A stretch of DNA of 11,065 nt from Sulfurimonadaceae bacterium (GTDB lineage: Bacteria; Campylobacterota; Campylobacteria; Campylobacterales; Sulfurimonadaceae), in contig JBFEXS010000073.1 of assembly GCA_041562555.1 (NCBI GenBank), positions 1-11,065 on the forward strand, in the 5' to 3' direction. The notes under the pieces are model-generated. The model searched no databases and was not told the DNA's origin. It was given only the letters and a program-made list of their open reading frames with translations. This document shows positions 1 through 11,065 of this stretch, one piece after another. Made by a program: the position numbers and the translations under genes. Positions within the stretch are counted from its first letter, which is position 1. Each line of letters begins with the position of its first letter.

Positions 1-153
1 GATGTTGTTACCCGGGTGGATCTTCGTACCACGTTGACGGATAATGATATTACCCGCACGTACAGTCTCACCGCCATATTTTTTAACGCCTAAACGACGT
101 CCAGCAGAATCTCTATTATTCTGTGTACTACCCTGACCTTTCTTATGTGCCAT
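1..153 (-). CDS. rpmA: 50S ribosomal protein L27 (5' part; runs off the left edge)
   Basis: Not in the ORF track. Manual translation from ATG at 153 gives [51 protein letters not shown], the classic L27 N-terminus. SD AAAGGA at 161-166. Directly downstream of rplU. Confidence 0.98.
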
Positions 154-186
154 CTTAGTGTCCTTTTAGTTTAGTTAAAACTGCTA

Positions 187-495
187 TTAAGCAGCGATTT
201 TCGTGATACGTACACGAGTAAAGTCACGACGGAAACCGCGCTTAACTTTAGAGTCTTTACGACGACGTTTTTTGAAAGAGATAACTTTTTTCTCACGACC
301 TTCGTTGATCACCTCAGCAGTAACAACCGCACCGTCAACATATGGAGCACCATATTTAAGCTCACCAGCGTTAACTGCAAGTACTTCTTTGATTTCGATA
401 GCGGCTTTTGGCTCTAAAGACATTTTGTCTAGAAGAAGGATGTCACCCTCTTGAACCTTGTACTGTTTACCACCATTTTTGATAATTGCGTACAT
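187..495 (-). CDS. rplU: 50S ribosomal protein L21
   Basis: [14 protein letters not shown]...[18 protein letters not shown] is the L21 signature. SD AAGGAA at 501-506, tandem TAA TAG stops, canonical rplU-rpmA order. Confidence 0.98.
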
Positions 496-765
496 TTATT
501 TTCCTTATTATTGTTAGAGTTCTCCAAAAACACTCAGTGTTAGGCGTAGACCTAATCATCACAAGCCAAATATGGCCCTTGAATAAAGTCACTTGGTGAC
601 TTCTTTTCAGAAAACTCGAAAGTACAACCCGAAGGAAATAGATCAAGATTGGTGATAATCAGGCCTGCGCCAGTAAAGAGAAGGAGTTTCACCCTCTCCG
701 ACACCAAGAATTACAAAAACTCTTTTAGTCTTTGACAGGACACTCGTGATGCCCTGCGATAAAGT
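496..765 (-). ncRNA. Putative ~270-nt structured 5' leader RNA / ncRNA upstream of rplU-rpmA
   Basis: Nested helices read by eye on the minus strand: 5' hairpin 735-757; 715-723/516-524 (9 bp); 701-708/533-540 (8 bp); hairpin 677-699; 652-671/543-562 (19 of 20 paired). Inner hairpins carry UUCG and GAAA loops. Many G-U pairs form only on the minus strand. Confidence 0.75.
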
Positions 766-777
766 GGGCGAATTATA
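765..777 (-). promoter_or_regulatory. sigma70 -10 box (TATAAT) with GC-rich discriminator for the rplU-rpmA leader; TSS about 765
   Basis: Minus strand reads CAG-TATAAT(777-772)-TCGCCC-A. A perfect -10 followed by a GC-rich discriminator is typical of r-protein/stable-RNA promoters. Confidence 0.75.
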
Positions 778-795
778 CTGGTATTTGCTTTAAGA

Positions 796-1239
796 TTACT
801 TTAACCCTCTGTCTTTTCTGACACATCTCAAGTGATTCGTATCACGCTTATAGTAGTAGTCTGTACTCCCGTTTCGAAAAAGGATCATCCATCCATATTC
901 CGTACCGTTTTGTGAAGATGACCAGTAATACTCCGAGGCAGTGTATTTAAAGACACTGATGACAGTCTTGGGATAGTTATCCACATTCACAATCGTTTTG
1001 AGTTCTGATAATGTAGGCAGATACCAATCATCATGCCCTGCAAAATCAAGGTCTTCACAATATGCGATTGCCTTATCAAAGCTAAGGTCCTGATCACTGG
1101 AGAATTCATCATCCTGCCACATCAGACCCCTTGTCTTATCGATAACGACATCTTTAACATCATCCCTGTAAAACTCATCCGCCTGCACCGAAGAGATCGG
1201 GAGGAAAACAAGAACTGCCCATACCAAAAGAGATTTCAT
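796..1239 (-). CDS. Secreted DUF1566 (Lcl C-terminal-like) domain protein
   Basis: Signal peptide ending VQA. Motifs VIDKTRGLMWQ, AIAYCEDL, DWYLPTLSEL, YWSSS and LRCVR are characteristic of DUF1566. ATG overlaps the upstream TGA (ATGA). Confidence 0.85.
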   Translation of the reverse strand: MKSLLVWAVLVFLPISSVQADEFYRDDVKDVVIDKTRGLMWQDDEFSSDQDLSFDKAIAYCEDLDFAGHDDWYLPTLSELKTIVNVDNYPKTVISVFKYTASEYYWSSSQNGTEYGWMILFRNGSTDYYYKRDTNHLRCVRKDRGLK

Positions 1240-2639
1240 TCAGAAAACTCCTCAATCACCTTAACATAACTGTCCATGTTTTCGAGAACTATATCAACAA
1301 GCTTGGCTTCAAAGTGCCTATCCCTTTGCTCCTGCAAAAAGGCGCACACCTCTTCGGCCGGCCATGCCTCTTTGTAAACACGTTTGCATAAAAGGGCATC
1401 CAATACATCCACAACTGCTACAATTCGGGCACATACCGGTATTTCATCACCCTTAAGTCCCTGAGGATACCCTGTCCCATCATATTTTTCATGGTGTGAA
1501 TAAGCAATCTGTGCAGCGACCTTCAAAACAGCACGTTCTGAATGCTTTAGAACTTTATAGCCTAAATCTGCATGCTGTTTCATGATCGTATACTCTTCTT
1601 CAGTCAATTTTCCCGGTTTGTTCAGAATACTGTCCGGAACGCCTATCTTACCTATATCATGAAGGGCTGATCCAAGTTCAATCAGGTGTACTTCATCCTC
1701 ATCCAGACCATATGACCTTGCGATCATACCACTGAGCATCGAGACACGACGGGTATGATGCTTGGTGTCATTTGAACGGATCTCCTCGATCTCACCCATT
1801 GCAATCATCGTCTCACGTAGTGTCTGCTCAATCTCATCGTTGAGTATTCGTAACTGCAGATTCTTTTCTTCCAAAGCAGCTTCTTTTCCCAATACATCAA
1901 AATTAAAATCATTGATGTTTTCGACAACAGCCTTTAACTCTTTACTCTCATACTTTTCGACATCTATACTCTTATGGGATGTGTAAGCCGCCTGACCTTC
2001 TTTAATCAAGTTTGAAAGGGGTTGACGGATATACCTCTCGATCACATGAAACATGTTGAAAATGATCATCAGAGCAAAAAGAGCCATAATCCCCGCCAGG
2101 ATATAGCTGTAATGTAACACCATCTTTTGATAATCACTGATATTCATGTGCATTTCGATAGCGCCCAAGAGTTCCCCATCCTGGACATTGTGGCACGCAA
2201 GGCAATTCAATTCACCCTGTGAGTCTGCTATATAGGGGATCGTTATCTCGACGCTGTTTTGCATATCTTTCCAAAGAAATCGAGGTTCTTTGTTGGATAA
2301 GACGGTATACAGCTCGGAATCCAAGGTCTTTTCATAACTTTTGGGAGGACCAAATTGTCTAGTGACTGCATCAGAACGGATGATATGGATTGCCTCGATC
2401 TCATGAATCTGCGATATCTCTGCGAGAAAATAGTCACGCTTATCCATCACACCTACTTTCATGTGTGCCGTCAAACCCGCTTTGACCACTTCTGCAATAG
2501 CATGAGATTTGTCTTCGATCGTCACCTGAAAAAAACTGCGGTAACTTAAAGCGACCATAGCAACGATGATAGTTATAGACAGAAGAAAGACATTCAGAAG
2601 ACGAGAAAGCGTGATTCTTTTAATACTCTTCTTCATCAT
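1236..2639 (-). CDS. Membrane-bound HD-GYP cyclic-dinucleotide phosphodiesterase with periplasmic c-type heme (CxxCH) sensor domain
   Basis: Two hydrophobic TM segments flank a periplasmic domain containing CLACH (2190-2204). C-terminal motifs HTRRV, LHDIGKIG, HHEKYDGTGYP and DVLDAL..KRVYK. Start moved from TTG 2651 to ATG 2639 or 2636 because GGGGGA at 2643-2648 looks like the SD. Confidence 0.9.
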   Translation of the reverse strand: MMKKSIKRITLSRLLNVFLLSITIIVAMVALSYRSFFQVTIEDKSHAIAEVVKAGLTAHMKVGVMDKRDYFLAEISQIHEIEAIHIIRSDAVTRQFGPPKSYEKTLDSELYTVLSNKEPRFLWKDMQNSVEITIPYIADSQGELNCLACHNVQDGELLGAIEMHMNISDYQKMVLHYSYILAGIMALFALMIIFNMFHVIERYIRQPLSNLIKEGQAAYTSHKSIDVEKYESKELKAVVENINDFNFDVLGKEAALEEKNLQLRILNDEIEQTLRETMIAMGEIEEIRSNDTKHHTRRVSMLSGMIARSYGLDEDEVHLIELGSALHDIGKIGVPDSILNKPGKLTEEEYTIMKQHADLGYKVLKHSERAVLKVAAQIAYSHHEKYDGTGYPQGLKGDEIPVCARIVAVVDVLDALLCKRVYKEAWPAEEVCAFLQEQRDRHFEAKLVDIVLENMDSYVKVIEEFSE

Positions 2640-2699
2640 ACTTCCCCCCAATGTAATATACTTTGTATCAGTCTAATTGTTTTTGTGTTAAATCAGCTA

Positions 2700-3101
2700 T
2701 TAAAAGGAATAGCAATCCGGACAAAGAGCGATCACTTCGATCTCTACAAGTGCATTTTTGGGAAGTGTCTTCGCTGCCACTAAAGAACGTGCCGGCTTAT
2801 GATCCCCAAAGGCTTCCGCATAGATCTCGTTCACCACAGCAAAATCGTTGATATCCGCAACAAAGGCCATCACCTTCACTACCTTGTCCAAAGAGGTTCC
2901 CGCTTCATCCAGTACGGCACGCAAGTTTGTAAACACCTGCTTGGTTTGCAGTACGATATCATCCTCTACCATCGTCCCATCCGGACGCAATGCGATCTGG
3001 CCGGAAGTATAGACCATACCATTGACTTTGACCGCCTGCGAATACGGACCGATCGCTGCAGGTGCTTCACTTGTTGCTACAAATTCAATTTTTTGACTCA
3101 T
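2700..3101 (-). CDS. ridA: RidA (YjgF/YER057c/UK114) family enamine/imine deaminase with C-terminal CPDC tail
   Basis: [29 protein letters not shown] (catalytic Arg) and [13 protein letters not shown] motifs. SD AAAGGA upstream. Confidence 0.92.
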
Positions 3102-3163
3102 TGTTTTATATTCCTTTGATACATAAAAAGATCTTCCTAAAGTATCTTTATTAAATTTATATA

Positions 3164-3169
3164 ATTCTA
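3164..3169 (-). promoter_or_regulatory. Probable -10 box (TAGAAT) for ridA
   Basis: attcta on the + strand, about 60 nt upstream of the ridA start, in an AT-rich intergenic region. Confidence 0.4.
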
Positions 3170-3193
3170 CTCTAAATTTATTATTTTTTGAGC

Positions 3194-3604
3194 TTAATAG
3201 CTCTTTTTCCCAAGTTTATAATCAACGTCATCCAGATAAGAGAGATAATCCTCTACATTCCAATATCCCATCACCCGCTTGATGATCGGTTGTCCTGCAC
3301 GGTTTAAGAAGTAAGTGGTCGGGACTCCCTTTGTATTTAGATAGCGAGGGTACTCATCTTCATCCCGCGTCAGATGAACACTTATATAATCACGATTCAA
3401 ACGTTTGGTGACCCTTGCATCTGTCAAGGTCTGCGACTCAAGCTTCCGACACCAGCGACAGCTCTTCGTCGTAATAAGTACCATCATGTTTTTGTCTTCG
3501 GCCTGTGCCTGCAGCAATGCTTCTTTAAAGGAGCTTGCCCATTGAACCTCATCAGCACATAGTGTTAAAAAACTGAATGATAGGATTAAAAAAAGTCTGC
3601 CCAT
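3194..3604 (-). CDS. Exported thioredoxin-fold protein (SoxW/DsbD-like thioredoxin family), CRWC active site
   Basis: Signal peptide (…TLCA-DE), W..SFKEAL..A..E.K motif, CRWC at 3449-3460, cis-Pro motif GVPTTYF, terminal GY. Confidence 0.85.
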
Positions 3605-3632
3605 AAAGTATCCCGCTAGTTATTTCCTCCGT

Positions 3633-3638
3633 ATTCTA
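3633..3638 (-). promoter_or_regulatory. Probable -10 box (TAGAAT) for the thioredoxin-family gene
   Basis: attcta on the + strand about 30 nt upstream of ATG 3604. Confidence 0.4.
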
Positions 3639-3737
3639 ACACAAGGAGTTTAGAAACAGCCAAAGGATATGCGTTAAATATAATCAATAATAAAGCGCTT
3701 CCCGGAGTAAAAAAATGAGAATCAATCTGCCGCTATA

Positions 3738-3761
3738 TGCTATACTTAGTTATTCGAGGTG
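3738..3761 (+). promoter_or_regulatory. Extended -10 promoter (TGcTATACT) and SD (GAGGTG) for the ATPase-GNAT gene
   Basis: TGCTATACT at 3738-3746 and GAGGTG at 3756-3761 precede ATG 3769. They lie inside the ORF-track N-terminal extension, which argues for the later start. Confidence 0.6.
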
Positions 3762-3768
3762 CTTTATC

Positions 3769-5205
3769 ATGCAAGACAGTATAGAGATCAAGATCAGTAA
3801 CACCGCCTACACTCCGTTCATCCTTTCTGCCTTTGATCAAATACACGCAAGACTGCACCAAACAAATCTCGCACCCATCAAGGAAGCTCTGGAGATACTC
3901 TTGGATAATGTCATCACCCACGCTTTTGAACAAGAGTACGAGATAGACCTTCGTGTCCATTTCATCATCCAGAGTTGTGAACTTCGTATTGATGTCATCG
4001 ATGCAGGTCTTCCTTTTGACTTCACACCTTATCTTTTTCAACCCTTGGACCAGCGTTACAAAAGACACACCGGACTATATCGGGTATACGAACTGGTGGA
4101 GAAGTTTGCGTATGAGGACTTGGGAAAAGAGGGAAAATGTTTGAGTATCACCCAAGAGTTCAATCTCTGCTATGACCTTAAAAACAACACCGTTGAGACA
4201 AAGATGTTTGACAAGGAAGAGGTCTTGAAAAAACTCAAGATACGCACCTTCCAGATCGGCGATGGTGACGGGATCGCGAAACTCATCTATCGGAATTACA
4301 ACTTCTCTTACTACAAAGACACCTTTTACATCCCGCACAAGGTAAGAGAAGCCAATGAGAACAACAGTGTTACCTCCATTGTCGCGTATTACAAAAAAGA
4401 ACTCATCGGACATTTCGCCCTTTTAAAATCAAAAGAGTCTAACATCTCGGAGATCGGTGTCGCCTGCGTAGATCCAAGGTTTAAACGTATGGGGATTATG
4501 AACCTCATGTTTGATGAGCTTATCCTTACGGCAAAAAAAGAAGGGCTAAAAGCGATCTATGGAGAAGCCCTTACCATGCACCCCTACTCACAAAAAGCCA
4601 ATCTCCGCCACAATATGATCGAATCCGCTATAGCTCTGGGGACGGTTCCTGCTTCCATGGAGATTGAGGAGAGTATCAAAACTGCCCAGAAAAGTGGAGC
4701 GATGATCGCATACTTGCTTTTTGATCCAAAACCCCGCAGTCTGTACCTACCTCATATCTATCAACAGGAAATCTTAAAAGTCTATACAAGAGCTGGTCTC
4801 ACGCTCCTTCCCTCCCAGAGCCATCCCGAAGATCGTCAGAATCTACGGTTTCGTATCAGCGATGTACTAAACTCTGCCACGATTATCATCGAAGATAACT
4901 TTGATATCAAAGCCTTTGAAAAGCTTTTTGAAGATCTCCGCCATGAACAACGGGATATGATCTTTGCCGATATCAATCTACATCATATCCAAGAGATTGA
5001 CAAGATCGTCTCTATGCTCAATACCCTTCATTTTTTTTATAGCGGCCTTCTTTTTGAGTACTATTACAATGAAGACTACCTGCGTCTTCAGTATATGAAC
5101 TCCCACAGTATTGATATCCAGGGTGTGATCTGCTATTCCGATGATGCCAATGCGATGATGGACTTTATTCGCCGGGATCATCTCCGGGTAATTCATCAAC
5201 AATGA
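3769..5205 (+). CDS. Fusion of RsbW/SpoIIAB-like HATPase domain and GNAT N-acetyltransferase
   Basis: N-terminus has EILLDNVITHAF (N box), IDAGLPFD (G1) and HTGLYRV (degenerate G2). Centre has EIGVACVDPRFKRMGIM (GNAT motif A) and EALTMHPYSQKAN. Start reassigned from 3715 to 3769. Confidence 0.8.
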   Translation: MQDSIEIKISNTAYTPFILSAFDQIHARLHQTNLAPIKEALEILLDNVITHAFEQEYEIDLRVHFIIQSCELRIDVIDAGLPFDFTPYLFQPLDQRYKRHTGLYRVYELVEKFAYEDLGKEGKCLSITQEFNLCYDLKNNTVETKMFDKEEVLKKLKIRTFQIGDGDGIAKLIYRNYNFSYYKDTFYIPHKVREANENNSVTSIVAYYKKELIGHFALLKSKESNISEIGVACVDPRFKRMGIMNLMFDELILTAKKEGLKAIYGEALTMHPYSQKANLRHNMIESAIALGTVPASMEIEESIKTAQKSGAMIAYLLFDPKPRSLYLPHIYQQEILKVYTRAGLTLLPSQSHPEDRQNLRFRISDVLNSATIIIEDNFDIKAFEKLFEDLRHEQRDMIFADINLHHIQEIDKIVSMLNTLHFFYSGLLFEYYYNEDYLRLQYMNSHSIDIQGVICYSDDANAMMDFIRRDHLRVIHQQ

Positions 5206-5355
5206 AAAAAAAACACTATAAGGTTCCAAATAGAAGTGACAGACATGGAGATGAACCCATAGCCTAATAGACAAAGCAGGTATGCAGCCTCTCTTAACAA
5301 TTTCTTATCAATTATAAGATAAGATAGCCTACCAATCATACGAAAAAGAGATACC

Positions 5356-6114
5356 ATGAAACGATTCACACATATGCTCATCCTGCTGATCAGCAGTGGT
5401 ACGATAGCCTCTGCCGATGGATGTTGGGATGCACTGGAGCTTGCCAAATACGGACAAAAATCCCTGGATGATGTCGCTGTCTTTTCCTTTAAAGATGCGA
5501 TCAACTGTCAACCGCTGAAAGATGTCAAGCTTAACTTTTTGGGAAAAGAGTTCATCAGTGACGGTAATGGGACGATCACCATGCCCCAACCTCCTGAAGA
5601 GATTGACGCCTTTGTTCCCATGAGTATCAGCAAAGAAGAGTACATTCCTGTAAAAAAGAACATGCATGTCAGCCTGGGGAACTACTGGCAAACCCTGTTC
5701 CTACTTACCAAAGAGATCCCTCTTGACTCTGCACGGTTTATCCTCTCGTGGGGGAAAGACCCTGCTGATCTGGACTTGCATCTTAAAAGTGATGACTTTC
5801 ACATCTCCTACCGTAAGACCCGTTCTATCCCGAACAAGGTCAAACTTGACCGCGATGCACGCAAAGGTTATGGACCAGAGACAATCACTCTGGATAAACT
5901 CAGAGCAGATAAAGAGTACACACTCCTTGTACATCGATACTCCACTACAGGCAAGATCAATAACAAGGCCAAAGTCTCTGTCTATCTGAACAATAGTTTT
6001 GATAAGACACTGTTTATGAAAGAGACCAATGCCAAATGTGTTCAAATCGCTACTATCAAAGACAAAAAGATCACCTATAAGATAGAAGAGGTCAAAGAGA
6101 GAGAATGTCAATAG
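5356..6114 (+). CDS. Secreted protein with YfaP/DUF2135-like domain
   Basis: Signal peptide ending ASA. LSWGKDPADLDLHL, LDRDARKGYGPETIT and YTLLVHRY motifs resemble DUF2135. Four Cys. Confidence 0.7.
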   Translation: MKRFTHMLILLISSGTIASADGCWDALELAKYGQKSLDDVAVFSFKDAINCQPLKDVKLNFLGKEFISDGNGTITMPQPPEEIDAFVPMSISKEEYIPVKKNMHVSLGNYWQTLFLLTKEIPLDSARFILSWGKDPADLDLHLKSDDFHISYRKTRSIPNKVKLDRDARKGYGPETITLDKLRADKEYTLLVHRYSTTGKINNKAKVSVYLNNSFDKTLFMKETNAKCVQIATIKDKKITYKIEEVKERECQ

Positions 6115-6187
6115 CCCCTCAAAGCTCTTATTCTCCCAACTCTTTTATAGGTTTTCCTTCGTAACTCCCGCTAATGAAAGACCAATA

Positions 6188-6218
6188 ATGAACTTCTTAT
6201 CATCACTCAGAAGTTCAT
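6188..6218. repeat. Perfect 10-bp inverted repeat (ATGAACTTCT-N11-AGAAGTTCAT): hairpin or operator
   Basis: Arms at 6188-6197 and 6209-6218 in the 216-nt intergenic region. No U-tract on the + strand. Confidence 0.6.
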
Positions 6219-6294
6219 CAACGCACGATACCTGTACATACTACAGATGTCACGACTACAAATAAGTATCATTTTTGTATAAGAAACTCTTTAC

Positions 6295-6300
6295 TATAAT
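6295..6300 (+). promoter_or_regulatory. -10 box (TATAAT) for the PAS histidine kinase
   Basis: Perfect TATAAT 30 nt upstream of ATG 6331. SD-like AAGGG at 6320-6324. Confidence 0.55.
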
Positions 6301-6330
6301 AATTCATTATCAATATATTAAGGGTTCTAT

Positions 6331-7482
6331 ATGATAACAGCAAAGTTGATTCAACTAGACGATCTCAAAAACTTTCTTAAAATAGTTGATAATTATGTTA
6401 TTACTTCAATTACTGACGAACGGGGCATTATTACCGATGTTTCAAAAGCCTTTTGCGATATCTCCGGATTTTCTGCAGAAGAACTCATTGGCCAGCCTCA
6501 TAATATCGTACGGCATAAGGATACACCCAAATCTGTCTTTCAGGAGATGTGGGACACGATATCTTCTGGCAAGATGTGGCAAGGCGAAGTTAAAAACAAT
6601 AAAAAAGATGGTGGTTTTTACTGGGTTGTCAGCACGATTTTTCCACGATTTGATGAAGAAGGAAAAATCACCGGTTATATCTCCTTACGACAGGATATCA
6701 CCGACTCCAAACTTTTGGTCGAACGCGAACGACTCTTAAAAGCACAATCCAAGAACGCTGCTATGGGCGAAATGATCAGTATGATCGCCCATCAATGGAA
6801 ACAGCCACTTAGTTCTATCTCAGCTATAGCGGGAAATGTTATTATCAAAAAAGAGCTGGATACACTTGATCCAGATACCCTTATGTCCAACATGCAAGAC
6901 ATACAAAAACTTACGACGCATCTATCTGATACCTCCGATGCCTTTTTAAACTTTTTCAATCCACAAAGTTCTGAGGGAACTGTTTTACTGTCCAGTGTTT
7001 TAAGTTATACCATCCAACTTATCGGTCCGCTTATTCTCGAAAACAATATCAATCTTTTCTATCAGTGCATGAACCAGCTACCAAAATCATTTACCGAAAA
7101 CCAACCCTTCAATTGTTCGATTGAGAATGATGACATCCATCTTCACATCACTAAAAATGACCTGGTCCAAGTCTTATTGAACATAATCAAAAACTCCATT
7201 GATGCCTTTTTAAGCAACCATATCAAAGACCCGACTATAAACATCCGACTCGAGAATGAGAACGGCTTTATCTCACTTGTAATCGAAGACAATGCAGGAG
7301 GGATAGAAACGGATATAATGGAACAAATATTCAGTCCTTACCGAACAAGCAAAGGGGATGCGGGAACTGGTCTAGGACTGTACATGTGTAAAATGATCAT
7401 CGAAGAACATCTCAATGGAACGATTTCCGCAAACAACACGCAAAATGGGGCACAATTCATCATCAAACTTCCCCAAGCCTGA
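6331..7482 (+). CDS. Cytoplasmic PAS-domain sensor histidine kinase
   Basis: Aer/NifL-like PAS (LIGQPHNIVRH..P..F..MW.TI..G..W.GE..N..KDG..YWV), H box MIAHQWKQPL, N box NIIKNSIDA, DNAGG, GTGLGLY. No TM segment. Confidence 0.92.
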   Translation: MITAKLIQLDDLKNFLKIVDNYVITSITDERGIITDVSKAFCDISGFSAEELIGQPHNIVRHKDTPKSVFQEMWDTISSGKMWQGEVKNNKKDGGFYWVVSTIFPRFDEEGKITGYISLRQDITDSKLLVERERLLKAQSKNAAMGEMISMIAHQWKQPLSSISAIAGNVIIKKELDTLDPDTLMSNMQDIQKLTTHLSDTSDAFLNFFNPQSSEGTVLLSSVLSYTIQLIGPLILENNINLFYQCMNQLPKSFTENQPFNCSIENDDIHLHITKNDLVQVLLNIIKNSIDAFLSNHIKDPTINIRLENENGFISLVIEDNAGGIETDIMEQIFSPYRTSKGDAGTGLGLYMCKMIIEEHLNGTISANNTQNGAQFIIKLPQA

Positions 7483-7523
7483 GTTTAATGACAGAGCCCC
7501 TAATACAATAAGTATCTACAAGA

Positions 7524-8618
7524 CTAAAATGTATCGATCAGTTCTCTGAAGACCTCATAGAGTTTTTGTACCTCTTCTTTCGAGGTACGCTCATTCGGCG
7601 CATGGATCGTGTCATTCTTCACTCCGAACTCTACGACATCGACACCGCAGGGTGCAATGAAACGGGCATCGGACGTACCACCGGCAGTAGAGTGTTTTGG
7701 TTTGATCCCCGTCACCTTCTCAATCGCTGCATCCAGACTGCGAACGATATGGGTGTCAGCATCAGTGACAAAGGGATACGCCGACTGATCAAGAGTTAAG
7801 GTATAGTTCATCTCACTGAAGTATTTATGCACAAAGTCCTCAATGTCTTCTTTCGTCGTCTTTGTCGAGTTTCGGACATTAAACATCATCTTGAGTTTGC
7901 CCGGTGTCACATTGGTCACTTCCATACCTGCGCGGATATCCGTTACCACGAACTGTGAAGGGGAAAAATATTCGTCTCCCTCATCCAGATCTACGCCTGC
8001 CATATGGTGCAGTACCTTCGCGACCTTGTGAATAGGGTTTGTCGCCTTTTCCGGATAAGCTGCGTGTCCCTGCTTTCCGATCTTTTCGATCACTCCATTG
8101 ATCGAACCGCGACGCCCTATTTTCATCGCATCACCGAAAACTTTCTCACAAGTCGGCTCTGCTACGATACAGGCATCAGGCATCAAATTCTTCTCTTTTA
8201 ATACTTCAAGAACTTTGACCGTACCGTTTTTAGCCGGTCCCTCTTCATCTGAAGTCAACAGCATAGAGAGCGTTCCCTTGAACTCCTTCGTATCATGTAC
8301 TGCCTGAATGAAAGCGGACAGACCCGATTTCATGTCCTGTGCACCGCGGCCATAGATATATCCGTCTTTTTCTATTGCGGTGTATGGGTCGGTATCCCAA
8401 CCCTCACCCGCCGGTACTACGTCGACATGCCCGGCGAAGCATAGATGTTCACCCTCACCGAACTTTTTATAAATAAAAAGGTTTTTCACCTCTTCTCTAT
8501 CAATAACGATAGAGGTATATTCCGGAAGATATTCACTGATCCACGCCAGCGCACCTGCATCATCAGGTGTCTCGCTCTTACGCTCGAGCATTGATTTAAA
8601 CAGTTCGATAACGTCCAA
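7524..8618 (-). CDS. dapE: Succinyl-diaminopimelate desuccinylase
   Basis: FAGHVDVVP, YGRGAQDMKS, TSDEEG, AEPT, GRRGS, QGHAAYP, GGTSDARF and TIHAPNE are M20 DapE motifs. TTG start with SD AAAGGGG inside the end of the upstream gene. Confidence 0.95.
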   Translation of the reverse strand: MDVIELFKSMLERKSETPDDAGALAWISEYLPEYTSIVIDREEVKNLFIYKKFGEGEHLCFAGHVDVVPAGEGWDTDPYTAIEKDGYIYGRGAQDMKSGLSAFIQAVHDTKEFKGTLSMLLTSDEEGPAKNGTVKVLEVLKEKNLMPDACIVAEPTCEKVFGDAMKIGRRGSINGVIEKIGKQGHAAYPEKATNPIHKVAKVLHHMAGVDLDEGDEYFSPSQFVVTDIRAGMEVTNVTPGKLKMMFNVRNSTKTTKEDIEDFVHKYFSEMNYTLTLDQSAYPFVTDADTHIVRSLDAAIEKVTGIKPKHSTAGGTSDARFIAPCGVDVVEFGVKNDTIHAPNERTSKEEVQKLYEVFRELIDTF

Positions 8619-8620
8619 GC

Positions 8621-8965
8621 CTACCCCTTTGTGTTTTCATAGAAGACATATGAAGTAGAATAGTCCGATATCTCAAAATAGACTTTTTTCTCTCCATCAT
8701 CGACTTTTAGATTGAAATTCTCATCCATCACCCCATATCCGAAACGATAAGGGCGTGCTTCATTGGTCTGTGTAGCGATAGCTGTACTCAGCTTATCGAC
8801 CTTGATAAAACGTTTGACCAGTTTCTCACCGGCATAGACATCTAAAACCCCATTGGTCCCCGTCCAGTTCTGGATTGAACGACCAAACTTGTTTTGCGTC
8901 TCTTGGGTACATCCCGTAAACAGTACAAAAGCGGTTACTGATAACAATAGTATTTTTTTCATCAT
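8621..8965 (-). CDS. Hypothetical lipoprotein
   Basis: MMKKILLLSVTAFVLFTG-C lipobox. Stop is 2 nt before the dapE start. Start is 8965 or 8962 rather than 8977, given the -10 at 8995-9000. Confidence 0.75.
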   Translation of the reverse strand: MMKKILLLSVTAFVLFTGCTQETQNKFGRSIQNWTGTNGVLDVYAGEKLVKRFIKVDKLSTAIATQTNEARPYRFGYGVMDENFNLKVDDGEKKVYFEISDYSTSYVFYENTKG

Positions 8966-8994
8966 GGCTTCTTTCATCTTATTTTATAAACCTA

Positions 8995-9000
8995 ATTATA
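8995..9000 (-). promoter_or_regulatory. -10 box (TATAAT) for the lipoprotein-dapE operon
   Basis: attata on the + strand, 30 nt upstream of ATG 8965. Confidence 0.55.
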
Positions 9001-9126
9001 ACGAGTCTTACTTGCAGCTGGATACTTCATAGAGACTAAAAGTTTTAATATATAATTTTTTTTAATATAATTATGATAGACACTACATCATAATGTTTCA
9101 TACATCATCTAACCAAAAGGACAATA

Positions 9127-9591
9127 ATGAAGATATTGTTATCTGTACTATTCATGCTTGCGATCTCCTTACAGGCATCCCCTCTACACATCGACGGAGT
9201 CAAGAAGATGCTTGATGAAGCGAGCAAGGTCGTCGAACATGTCTCGCCCAAAGAACTTAAACGCATGCTTGATAAAGAAGAAGACTTTTACCTGATAGAT
9301 CTCAGGGGGTCCGATCAGGTGGAACGGGGAGAGATCTACTGGATAGACAGCTTCAAAATCCCGAGGGGTTATCTGGAGTTTAGAGTGGAACTGAAGATCC
9401 CCGATAAAAATGCAAGGGTCATTCTCTACTGCTGCAGTGGCAAACGCAGTATCCTTGCAGCAAAGAGTATGATGGACATGGGATATACCAATGTAGCTCA
9501 TCTGGAGGGAGGAATCCGCGCCTGGGTCGAGCAGGACTACCTTCTTGACACCACCTATGGAGAGATGCAAAAATATCAAACAGAAGAATAA
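9127..9591 (+). CDS. Exported single-domain rhodanese-like sulfurtransferase
   Basis: Signal peptide (…ISLQA-SP), LIDLR, IPRGYLEF, active-site loop YCCSGKRS, GYTNVAHLEGGIRAW. SD AAAAGGA at 9115-9121. Confidence 0.88.
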   Translation: MKILLSVLFMLAISLQASPLHIDGVKKMLDEASKVVEHVSPKELKRMLDKEEDFYLIDLRGSDQVERGEIYWIDSFKIPRGYLEFRVELKIPDKNARVILYCCSGKRSILAAKSMMDMGYTNVAHLEGGIRAWVEQDYLLDTTYGEMQKYQTEE

Positions 9592-9594
9592 AGT

Positions 9595-10749
9595 CTAAAC
9601 TCTAGACTTTTCTTCCTCCATACTCAATTCCATTGGGAATGTTATTGTAAACCGTGCACCTTTATACTGTTTGTTGTGATACTCAAACGTGCAGTTTTCA
9701 ACATCCAGTTCCCCCCGTAAATGTACTATCACAAATTTGCGTGCCATATACAGTCCCAGTCCCGTTCCTTTATCATCAGACTTTGTAGTAAAATATGCAT
9801 TAAAGATATCGCTGATATTTTCCTCTTTAATACCTCCTGCCGTATCCTTGACAATAATCGTACACTGTCCATCTTCCTCTTTAACCTCTATGAATATGTA
9901 TCTGTCTTCGACAGCCTGTTTGTGAAAAGCATCACAAGCATTGGTAATAAGGTTCATCAACACATGCAAAAGCTTATTTTGATATCCCCGAAGAATTAAT
10001 CCCGTCTCGGGGATGAGCAGTGCTACTTTGTCATCGTGCAGTTTATCTCCGATCAATGAATTGATCCTTTCAAAAACTGTCTGCAGCTTAAACCTTTGTA
10101 TCGTATCTCTGGGTTTCAAATAGTCTCTGAAGTCATTGATCGTCTGACTGAGGTACTGCACTCTCTCGGCAGCATTATCCATAAAGTCCAGCATGTCTTT
10201 TTCATCCAGTTGCCCCAGTTCATGTTGAACCTGCAAATGGCTGATCTCAGCACTGATAGCGCTCAGGGGCTGTCTCCATTGATGCGTGATCAAGCCGATG
10301 ACCTCTCCAATAGCAGCATATTTATTCTGGTGTTCAAGGTTTTTCGTGAGAATCCCTAACTCTCTGTTCTCTTCAAGTCTTTTTGCTATGTTGTTCAAAG
10401 GGATTGTGAGTTCATCCTGAGATTGGATCGGTTTGTTGATATAACTGTCGACCCCTATCTTGATAGCTTTTTTCAAGTCGTCTATATTATTGAATGCCGT
10501 CAGTAATACCACCGGTTGCTTCGGGAAATGCTCTTTAATATGCTCACTCATCTGAAGCCCGTCAAGTTTTGGCATGTATATATCACTCAAAACGATGTCA
10601 GGCTTATACTGTTCATACATCCTTAACCCTTCTTCCCCGTCATGGGCAATATACAAATCCCCCACCTCATCCTCAATGAGCTCTTTCATAAGCTCTGTTA
10701 TCTCTCGCTCATCCTCTACGTACAAGACAGATAAGTTCTTTAATGACAT
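9595..10749 (-). CDS. Hybrid response-regulator receiver / histidine kinase (REC-HisKA-HATPase)
   Basis: REC: LYVEDE, LSDIYMP, LTAF, INKP. H box ITHQWRQPL, NLITNACDA, DTAGG, FTTK, GTGLGLY. Start reassigned to ATG 10749 (SD GAGGAG 10755-10760, upstream stop at 10751-10753). Confidence 0.92.
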   Translation of the reverse strand: MSLKNLSVLYVEDEREITELMKELIEDEVGDLYIAHDGEEGLRMYEQYKPDIVLSDIYMPKLDGLQMSEHIKEHFPKQPVVLLTAFNNIDDLKKAIKIGVDSYINKPIQSQDELTIPLNNIAKRLEENRELGILTKNLEHQNKYAAIGEVIGLITHQWRQPLSAISAEISHLQVQHELGQLDEKDMLDFMDNAAERVQYLSQTINDFRDYLKPRDTIQRFKLQTVFERINSLIGDKLHDDKVALLIPETGLILRGYQNKLLHVLMNLITNACDAFHKQAVEDRYIFIEVKEEDGQCTIIVKDTAGGIKEENISDIFNAYFTTKSDDKGTGLGLYMARKFVIVHLRGELDVENCTFEYHNKQYKGARFTITFPMELSMEEEKSRV

Positions 10750-10750
10750 T

Positions 10751-11065
10751 TTATCTCCTCCTTGGCAATGAAATCGTGATTTCTGCCCCAACATCTGTAT
10801 TTTTAGCTTCTATATCTCCCTGCAGAGACTCCTCTATGATCATCTTGCTCATGTACAGGCCTATACCCGTACCTTTGTCTTTGAACTTCGTTGTAAAATA
10901 CGGTTCAAAGATATGCGAAATGACATCCTCTTCAAATCCCCCGCCATTATCACTGAACACGATTGTCCAATTACTTCTGGAAGCCTCCAGGGTAATATGT
11001 ATATGCCCTTTTTGAACCTTATTCTCTACAATAGCATCAATACTGTTTTTAATCAAGTTAAAAAA
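10751..11065 (-). CDS. Sensor histidine kinase, C-terminal HATPase domain (partial; runs off the right edge)
   Basis: Frame is open to the window edge: [33 protein letters not shown]. Confidence 0.9.

Follow-up and report, generated by a model that had tools for sequence, protein, structure and literature searches.

A large, probably regulatory leader RNA ahead of rplU-rpmA in a few Sulfurimonadaceae-like genomes

RNA-based feedback has its classic examples in ribosomal protein operons, several of which carry described leaders with which a new one can be compared. To our knowledge, the only catalogued leader for the L21 gene is a short Firmicute motif, the L21_leader family of about 80 nt, whose ligand is also unproven. 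In Escherichia coli, the same genes, rplU-rpmA, form one of the two operons reported to be without such feedback, according to passages of PMC10931766 and PMC7297116 that cite Aseev et al. (2016). In Bacillus subtilis, the infC-rpmI-rplT operon is preceded by a leader of about 200 nt, where L20, encoded in the operon, chooses between alternative folds and a terminator, as described in part of PMC1865079. The present analysis deals with a much larger structure found ahead of rplU in a Sulfurimonadaceae bacterium (GenBank assembly GCA_041562555.1, contig JBFEXS010000073.1, positions 1 to 11,065), the whole stretch of 11,065 nt being referred to as the window. Positions 765-496 of its minus strand are the 5′ untranslated leader of rplU-rpmA, read from a promoter common to the whole family and belonging to a strand-specific form of 200-270 nt which, among the best 80 relatives, occurs only in a few uncultured Sulfurimonadaceae-like genomes. 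This leader is a new RNA family without an Rfam match, of a known kind (the structured leader of a ribosomal protein operon), unusually large and with signs of a two-state switch. Because its structure is kept in a small bacterial group and no catalogued family was matched, it is probably a new regulatory leader.

Folding of the minus-strand RNA from 765 to 496 with RNAfold, a comparison that the original prediction had proposed as a check, gave a minimum free energy (MFE) of -92.9 kcal/mol, against -64.9 +/- 4.5 kcal/mol for 200 dinucleotide shuffles (z -6.27, none of the 200 as good). The opposite strand of 496-765 reached -58.7 kcal/mol, with a z of -1.15 and 26 of 200 shuffles as good, and this difference between sense and antisense indicates that the structure is a property of the RNA strand reading into rplU. 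The MFE structure holds 88 pairs, 18 of which are G-U, where at least 10 had been foreseen. The predicted ground state is a closed rod made of a hairpin P1, a helix between P2 and the 3′ tail, a helix P3, a three-way junction with P4 and the long P5, and a variable apical domain, with the Shine-Dalgarno (SD) sequence left free. As one nested rod it contains every helix listed in the original prediction, whose coordinates all hold on the minus-strand reading.

All the elements of the rod lie on the minus strand. P1 (736-756), which starts 9 nt from the 5′ end, is a hairpin of 8 bp with the arms CAGGGCAU (756-749) and GUGUCCUG (743-736) around the loop CACGA (748-744). It is followed by an invariant AAAGAC (728-733), seen in the alignment, that can pair with GUUUUU (526-531), and by the P2 region (707-723), where AGAGUU (723-718) has two alternative partners, a local AAUUCU (712-707) and a distal AACUCU (521-516). 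In the outer helix of the rod, AGAGUUUUU (723-715) is paired with GAGAACUCU (524-516), so that the conserved 3′ tail GGAGAACUCU (516-525) closes the rod with the P2 arms; the distance from the end of this helix to the SD is 9 nt, as compared to the roughly 10 nt originally estimated. The SD itself, AAGGA (502-506), is predicted to be mostly unpaired and precedes the rplU ATG at 495-493. Inside the outer helix, P3 joins its 5′ arm CUUGGUGU (701-708) to its 3′ arm ACACUGAG (533-540), and a conserved G-U5 run (526-531) stands immediately 3′ of it. P4 (677-699) is the hairpin GGAGAGGG-UGAAACU-CCUUCUCU, with a near-invariant stem and a variable loop, which includes the smaller hairpin GAGAGGG-UGAAACU-CCUUCUC at 698-678. 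P5, with GGCGCAGGCCUGAUUAUCAC (652-671) as 5′ arm and GUGAUGAUUAGGUCUACGCC (543-562) as 3′ arm in the RNAfold structure, has 19 of its 20 positions paired in the window, and the variable apical domain above it (563-651) folds here into three hairpins, one of them with a UUCG loop.

Relatives were obtained by scanning genome contigs with the L21 of the window, which gave 433 of them; the best 80 (84-97% identity) were used, nearly all from Sulfurimonas or Sulfurimonadaceae and mostly metagenome-assembled genomes (MAGs), and their loci are denoted here by L and a number. Leader length could be classified in 77 of the 80 loci, the rest being cut by a contig end. The -10 hexamer lies 39-72 nt from the ATG in a short form (41 loci), 90-98 nt from it in a form with a single variable hairpin (26 loci) and 213-271 nt from it in a long form (10 loci: L001, L002, L021, L063, L066, L067, L069, L071, L072 and L079); L074, cut by a contig end, retains the last 143 nt of the long form. 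The lineage-specific leader that had been proposed is thus the long form of these 10 of 77 relatives and the cut L074, whereas in 67 of the 77 the common promoter serves leaders of 39-98 nt between -10 and ATG. As a separate observation, the hairpin form (L004-L007, L010-L017, L020, L022-L024, L026, L033, L034, L043, L050, L051, L054, L055, L070 and L080) has a stem of about 10 bp some 80 nt before rplU, in which 5 of 5 consensus pairs covary, with changes on both sides, and it represents a second structured insert at the same site and behind the same promoter.

The conserved promoter block extends over about 45 nt and consists of TTAAAyAAAACTTAAAGC, about 11 nt (N11), TATAAT and then TCCGAACTTTTT, and the pattern of a -10 plus TCnnnACTTT is present in all 77 classifiable rplU loci. 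In the window the TATAAT, recognized in the sequence and as a motif in the relatives, occupies 772-777 of the minus strand, as the original prediction had it, and transcription would start at about 765, an A placed by promoter geometry 7 nt after the -10. The distal portion of the block, TTAAAGTAATCTTAAAGC (787-804, minus strand), was recognized from the upstream regions of the relatives and overlaps the stop codon (796-798) of the preceding open reading frame (ORF), which encodes a small Lcl_C-domain protein. A generic sigma-70 scan of the window left the rplU promoter uncalled, since a TTGACA-like -35 is absent; the distal AAACTTAAAGC resembles a binding site or UP-like element more than a -35. 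The upstream sequences of the relatives showed no conserved -10 between the U-run and the SD, and an internal promoter near the SD was rejected for this reason. The gene 5′ of the long leaders varies by locus (Lcl_C, an ArsR-type regulator, RidA, HD-GYP-like or cadherin-like), and 3′ of rplU all 10 long loci keep an L27-sized frame and two larger frames. With a variable upstream gene and a constant rplU-rpmA downstream, the leader belongs to rplU, the gene to which it had been tied from the start.

A search with nhmmer and a 10-sequence alignment matched only long leaders and L074 (E <1e-34; all else >=0.09). Moreover, 7 long leaders, cut back to AAAGAC...GUUUUU, were used for a covariance model that left out the window, L002, L021 and L074. 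The model found the window copy at 733-526 over all 164 positions with 102.3 bits (E 2e-27), and also L002 (114.7 bits), L021 (104.1 bits) and the cut L074 (91.4 bits), with nothing further better than E 0.4 over 388,455 bases. Both searches show a single copy per locus, with no second or free-standing copy in these 388 kb. Across 11 long leaders the folding z was -2.2 to -6.6 in the sense strand and +0.1 to -2.1 in the antisense, except for L071 (-3.95). Identity of the core between the two subgroups of leaders was 0.76, as compared to 0.57 for rplU third-codon positions and 0.49 for the apical domain (24 sequence pairs), and a core that exceeds third-codon positions argues for purifying selection on it beyond that on synonymous sites. 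The strand-specific z, the conservation of pairs and this core identity together bear out the selection at the RNA level that the original prediction had read from the G-U pairs.

Pairing was counted in a MAFFT alignment of 10 leaders for P1, AAAGAC/GUUUUU, local P2, P3, P4 and P5. With local P2, 91.6% of 526 pair cells were standard, against 44-54% when partners were slid by 1-3 columns, and 9 pairs had changed on both sides, against 2-3 in the slid versions and 3.2 +/- 1.3 in shuffles (0 of 500 reached that number). The rod version, with the 5′ AGAGU paired to the 3′ tail, gave 90.4% of cells and 10 both-side-changed pairs, and a model-based alignment of 11 sequences 91.0% and 5 such pairs, against 0-3 when slid; the slid controls overall had 44-57% of cells. 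The both-side changes are located in P1 (4, mostly in L079 and L063), P5 (3), P4 (1) and local P2 (1, in L066). P1 is absent in L067 and L069 and, on this alignment, is dispensable. The AAAGAC/GUUUUU helix has 6 of 6 standard pairs in 10 of 10 sequences and never varies. It replaced an earlier candidate, the pairing of the CUAAAAG A-run with the U-run, which is broken in L067 and L069. Local P2 is paired in 100% of cells and distal P2 in 89%, and L066 carries a compensatory change from A-U to C-G in local P2 that disrupts the distal pairing. P3 and P4 are both paired in 100% of cells, the former with wobble changes only, which fit RNA pairing in this alignment, yet are not strong covariation, and the latter with a near-invariant stem sequence and a variable loop.

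P5 is paired in 81% of cells across the family, with mismatches and bulges in the relatives, and includes a G.G mismatch in 8 of 10 sequences that is a G-U in the window and L021. A kink-turn (K-turn) or box C/D reading of CUGA...UGAUGA in P5 was considered and discarded: by eye, the Watson-Crick register has 10 continuous pairs with a single G.G, and a K-turn would break pairs. The apical domain is rich in indels and variable in length and hairpin number, with frequent UUCG caps. An extra apical insert (AGAGUUUUCUGAAAAGAAGUCA...UGACUU) is common to the window, L002 and L021, and MAFFT places it against AGAGUCUUGUGAUGAUGAG, from the region of the P5 3′ arm in the other leaders, hinting at an origin by internal duplication. 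L071 has a GC-rich, strongly structured leader (z -5.75) in which the same layout can be recognized by eye: AAGAC/GUCUU (present in its MFE structure), AGAGUGU/ACACUCU, a GGAGAG/CUCUCC hairpin and CUGAU/AUGAG with G.G mismatches.

A tree of rplU and 1.9 kb downstream, unrooted and made from 73 loci and the window after 7 loci had been dropped as cut or too short, places the 12 long rows on one side, which requires 2 changes, where 500 shuffles of the labels averaged 11.3 and none came down to 2. Within the long rows falls a clade of 61 rows carrying short or hairpin forms, and L073, which has a short leader, is the sister of L071. This tree allows two histories, an ancestral long leader with two losses or a single gain followed by a single loss; in any case, the long leader is by the same evidence an old element that persists across deep branches. 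The sample comprises 11-12 long sequences from perhaps 6-7 lineages, all uncultured. Some of the records have unexpected labels, L001 being filed as a Nitrosopumilaceae archaeon MAG, L074 as a Flavobacteriales MAG and L021 as an Arcobacter sp. MAG, with rplU loci that are Sulfurimonadaceae-like, so these MAGs are likely to be mis-binned or mislabelled. L074 also sits on an extreme branch of the tree, as though its downstream part were foreign.

Three features of the locus had escaped the original prediction: a run of U5-7 right after P3, an alternative terminator-like fold in half of the relatives, and the use of the same promoter for short leaders in most of them. Of 12 long leaders, 11 have the run (G-U5-7) directly 3′ of P3, at 28-33 nt from the ATG. 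Two partners are available to the P3 3′ arm ACACUAAG, the P3 5′ arm and, alternatively, the base of the P5 3′ arm GUUUAGUG, and the second option forms a hairpin, T, adjoining the U-run. The 5′ AGAGU likewise has a choice between an ACUCU close by and the one in the 3′ tail. T is clean, with 7-8 bp and -4.7 to -7.4 kcal/mol, in L001, L002, L066, L072, L074 and L079, and an independent pattern scan lists it as terminator-like in L072 and L001, at 2443-2462. The same kind of pattern, a G+C-rich hairpin with a loop of 3-8 nt and an immediate U-run, gave no intrinsic terminator on the minus strand of 496-765 in the window. When 7 leaders were cut at the U-run, which mimics the state while the polymerase sits there, the RNAalifold consensus consisted of local P2, a CAGG/CCUG hairpin, the upper part of P5 and T. 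On the 10-sequence alignment the T-containing fold had 91.7% of cells paired and 9 both-side-changed pairs, including two in T. For full-length leaders, the rod was predicted to be 6-15 kcal/mol more stable than the fold with local P2 and AAAGAC/GUUUUU, and each of the 10 leaders tested had it as ground state. Over the stretch between SD and AUG, mean P(unpaired) was 0.75 in the window and 0.34-0.85 over 11 leaders. Two candidate mechanisms at this end of the leader were rejected: sequestration of the SD by the P4 3′ arm, complementary only in the subgroup of the window, and CsrA-type GGA sites, the GGA of the 3′ tail being absent in L002 and L021.

Comparison with catalogued RNAs and proteins left the interval without another identity. 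The covariance scan that had been suggested gave 0 matches to Rfam 15 at gathering score over the whole window. At E<=10, region 400-900 matched only MIR395 (24.5 bits vs 56 needed) and DUF3800-III (16.3 vs 43.8), chance-level scores on which both were rejected, and L21_leader, 6S, RNase P, SRP and all riboswitch models were absent. The original prediction had noticed no RNase P, SRP or tmRNA signature, in line with their absence from the Rfam matches and with ARAGORN, which found no tRNA or tmRNA. It had also seen no credible gene between the promoter and rplU. The two small TTG-start ORFs in the gap (467-646 and 552-707) have no Pfam match and both cross regions that are rich in indels in the relatives, and a coding function was rejected on the lack of a family and on these breaks. 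Comparison by blastn with plasmids and phages gave nothing similar, and literature searches on rplU, the L21 leader and Epsilonproteobacteria found no description of the element.

From these data it is very probable that the structure is a real, conserved cis-acting leader RNA, and fairly probable that it is regulatory rather than merely stabilizing. That it serves as a feedback or attenuation element for the rplU-rpmA operon is a serious possibility, short of an even chance, and the narrower reading of ribosomal protein feedback through attenuation is put forward tentatively, by analogy, with the L20-dependent attenuator of the B. subtilis infC operon as the example that makes a ribosomal protein a candidate. 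At the outset, a trans factor would recognize the P3-P4-P5 junction, whose sequence is invariant, together with the conserved non-canonical G.G of P5; free L21 or L27, both ribosomal proteins encoded by the operon, would be the most economical guess. Binding of the factor would shift the balance between the closed rod and a fold with local P2, the CAGG/CCUG hairpin and T next to the U-run, and this balance would in turn set the read-through of the polymerase past the U5-7 run located behind P3 or T, 28-33 nt 5′ of the start codon. With its degenerate T and near-perfect P5, the window copy would strongly favour the rod, and any termination there would need P3 and the U-run. A bolder version, a 200-270-nt attenuator with two exclusive folds that senses free L21/L27 or a growth-state nucleotide and sets rplU-rpmA-obg-proB at once, is speculative and rather improbable.

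Several points weigh against feedback by attenuation. The identity of the trans factor is a guess, and feedback on rplU-rpmA is without a tested precedent in E. coli, as no autogenous control was reported there (Aseev et al. 2016, cited in sections of PMC10931766 and PMC7297116). Covariation is modest, the both-side changes being few, coming mainly from L066, L079 and L063 and falling short of R-scape-grade significance, while P2a, P3 and P4 are uninformative either way because they hardly vary; related sequences can, moreover, exceed a shuffle control without any structure. The divergent leader of L071 goes unrecognized by the model (5.9 bits, E 0.13 in 601 nt) and nhmmer shows no homology either, so that its kinship with the other long leaders is no more than possible. 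Hairpin T is weaker and differently placed in L067 and L069 and absent in the window, L021, L063 and L071, its energies are weak for a terminator, and L072 and L001 have no more terminator-like sites than shuffles do. Simple translational occlusion is unlikely, since the SD is predicted to be free. Comparison of words with 23S rRNA gave a best 12-mer with E 0.034, within the range of 20 shuffled sets, using the E. coli sequence, which may not reflect the rRNA of the carrier itself; as regards rRNA mimicry, such word matches are at chance level.

Other explanations have to be weighed against this one. The rod and the P5 of about 20 bp could be an element of processing or stability, as a substrate for RNase III or a barrier to 5′-end-dependent decay by RNase J, which would set the half-life or the mature 5′ end of the transcript and sense nothing. 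The near-complete P5 of the window, the rod as ground state in all 10 leaders tested and the free SD, expected of a stabilizer, fit such a role, as do the 26 relatives with a simple covarying hairpin at the same site, which look like plain stabilizers, and RNase J is described as the major ribonuclease of Helicobacter pylori in part of PMC10700544. However, invariant helix sequences, a conserved G.G mismatch and a U-run would be unneeded by a stabilizer, P1 begins 9 nt inside the 5′ end and L067 and L069 lack it, and P5, which with its 19 of 20 paired positions in the window may come near the two turns or so of double strand expected of an RNase III substrate, is interrupted by mismatches and bulges in most relatives; a purely stabilizing element is unlikely. 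A separate small RNA of about 200-240 nt, ending at the U-run or cut from the leader and acting in trans, with rplU expressed by read-through, would agree with the closing helix and U5-7 in 11 of 12 leaders, the terminator-like hairpin in 6 of 12 and the compact closed domain with UUCG-capped stems. But this promoter is the only conserved one of rplU and drives the gene directly in 67 of 77 relatives, and an efficient terminator would starve an essential operon; neither a second or free-standing copy in 388 kb nor a conserved -10 between U-run and SD was found, and the idea is doubtful.

Riboswitches ahead of ribosomal protein genes are unusual, which counts against a further candidate, a small-molecule riboswitch for a nucleotide or alarmone, for instance, that would link the synthesis of ribosomal protein, Obg and ProB to growth, with the rod and T as its expression platform. 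Two exclusive folds equally compatible with the alignment, a fitting size and multi-stem junction architecture, and a GTPase gene, obg, in the operon speak for it. Conservation, however, resides in helices and not in junction or loop nucleotides, the P4 loop being variable and the junctions short, T is lost in the very copy of the window, and no Rfam riboswitch was matched, all of which makes this reading quite improbable. Least probable is that the structure is a relic without function, left by a selfish or palindromic DNA insert or by some feature of the DNA itself that the leader tolerates, as its presence or absence among close relatives and its variable apical part with insertions might suggest. 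Against this stand the strand specificity of the fold and its 18 G-U pairs, a core conserved beyond synonymous sites, one copy per locus and none elsewhere in the 388 kb, nothing similar from plasmids or phages, and the retention of the element across deep branches.

Among the neighbouring genes, all on the minus strand, rplU occupies 187-495 (102 aa; Pfam Ribosomal_L21p, E 2e-34) and the 5′ portion of rpmA 1-153, truncated at the window edge (Pfam Ribosomal_L27, E 2e-24). The order 5′ of rplU is an HD-GYP-like protein ORF (2651-1236), the small Lcl_C-domain protein ORF (1239-796) and a gap of 300 nt down to rplU. In several relatives (compared: L063, L071, L073, L078 and L061) ridA, encoding an Endoribonuclease L-PSP, ends immediately 5′ of the rplU promoter, whereas in the window ridA is at 2700-3101 and the HD-GYP-like (1236-2651) and Lcl_C (796-1239) genes intervene, which suggests, from gene order, an insertion or rearrangement 5′ of the promoter. 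The operon order in the relatives is rplU-rpmA-obg-proB, with obg and proB confirmed in L072, whose downstream frames are by Pfam L27, Obg and an amino-acid kinase, the latter presumably proB. The rpmA-obg spacer measures 100-200 nt in long-leader loci (L001 3093-3289, L072 3091-3191) and contains flagged terminator-like hairpins (L072 3083-3096, L001 3145-3164); obg and proB may therefore be only partly co-transcribed with rplU-rpmA. Elsewhere in the window, a 496-aa ORF (3715-5205, plus strand) shows an unusual combination of weak matches, to a histidine-kinase-like ATPase at the N-terminus and to a GNAT acetyltransferase at residues ~205-282, with E-values of only 1e-3 to 4e-6, and a 252-aa ORF (5356-6114, plus strand) and a 118-aa ORF (8621-8977, minus strand) are without a Pfam family at E<=0.001.

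A large multi-stem leader in Campylobacterota would mean that rplU-rpmA has acquired RNA control independently. It would also be a sizeable new structured RNA in a phylum where 5′ UTRs (untranslated regions) are usually of about 30 nt: those of Campylobacter jejuni measure 0-158 nt, with a mean of 30.6, in the data given in part of PMC3847290, which makes a 270-nt leader an outlier. One promoter with three leader forms, from none through a hairpin to a domain of 200-270 nt, offers a natural series for the gain and loss of leaders, and the two folds with their conserved U-run make the idea directly testable in vitro. If true, the two-fold attenuator would be the first feedback device for this operon described outside Firmicutes, and unrelated to known leaders.

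With regard to described systems, the Rfam L21_leader (RF00559), the Firmicute rplU-ysxB-rpmA leader, lies at the same site, the 5′ UTR of rplU-rpmA, and is the presumed cis element of the same operon, but the window leader shares its position and not its score, with no match to the covariance model even at E<=10, and differs from it in its 200-270 nt, its three-way junction and its occurrence in Campylobacterota. The rplU-rpmA operon of E. coli has the same genes and a promoter just upstream, with no large structured leader described. The leaders of Eckert and Weinberg are reportedly smaller than the window type. As candidates (Eckert and Weinberg 2020, PMC7247131) they are likewise lineage-restricted conserved structures 5′ of ribosomal protein genes, found comparatively; the terms L21, L27, bL21, Epsilon and Campylobacter never occur in the text of that study, and rplU appears in its reference list only. 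Of the features of autoregulatory ribosomal protein leaders, a conserved fold ahead of the operon is seen here in about 91% of cells paired, against 44-57% when slid, and in 5-10 both-side-changed pairs. The infC-rpmI-rplT leader of B. subtilis is alike in the proposed mechanism, without similarity in sequence or model and with another protein and operon; the window-type leader further differs from it in a terminator-like hairpin that half of its members lack and in a mechanism that is here a prediction. In sum, the closest described relative of this leader is the Rfam L21_leader by place, the L20 attenuator by proposed mechanism and the candidates of Eckert and Weinberg (2020) by kind.

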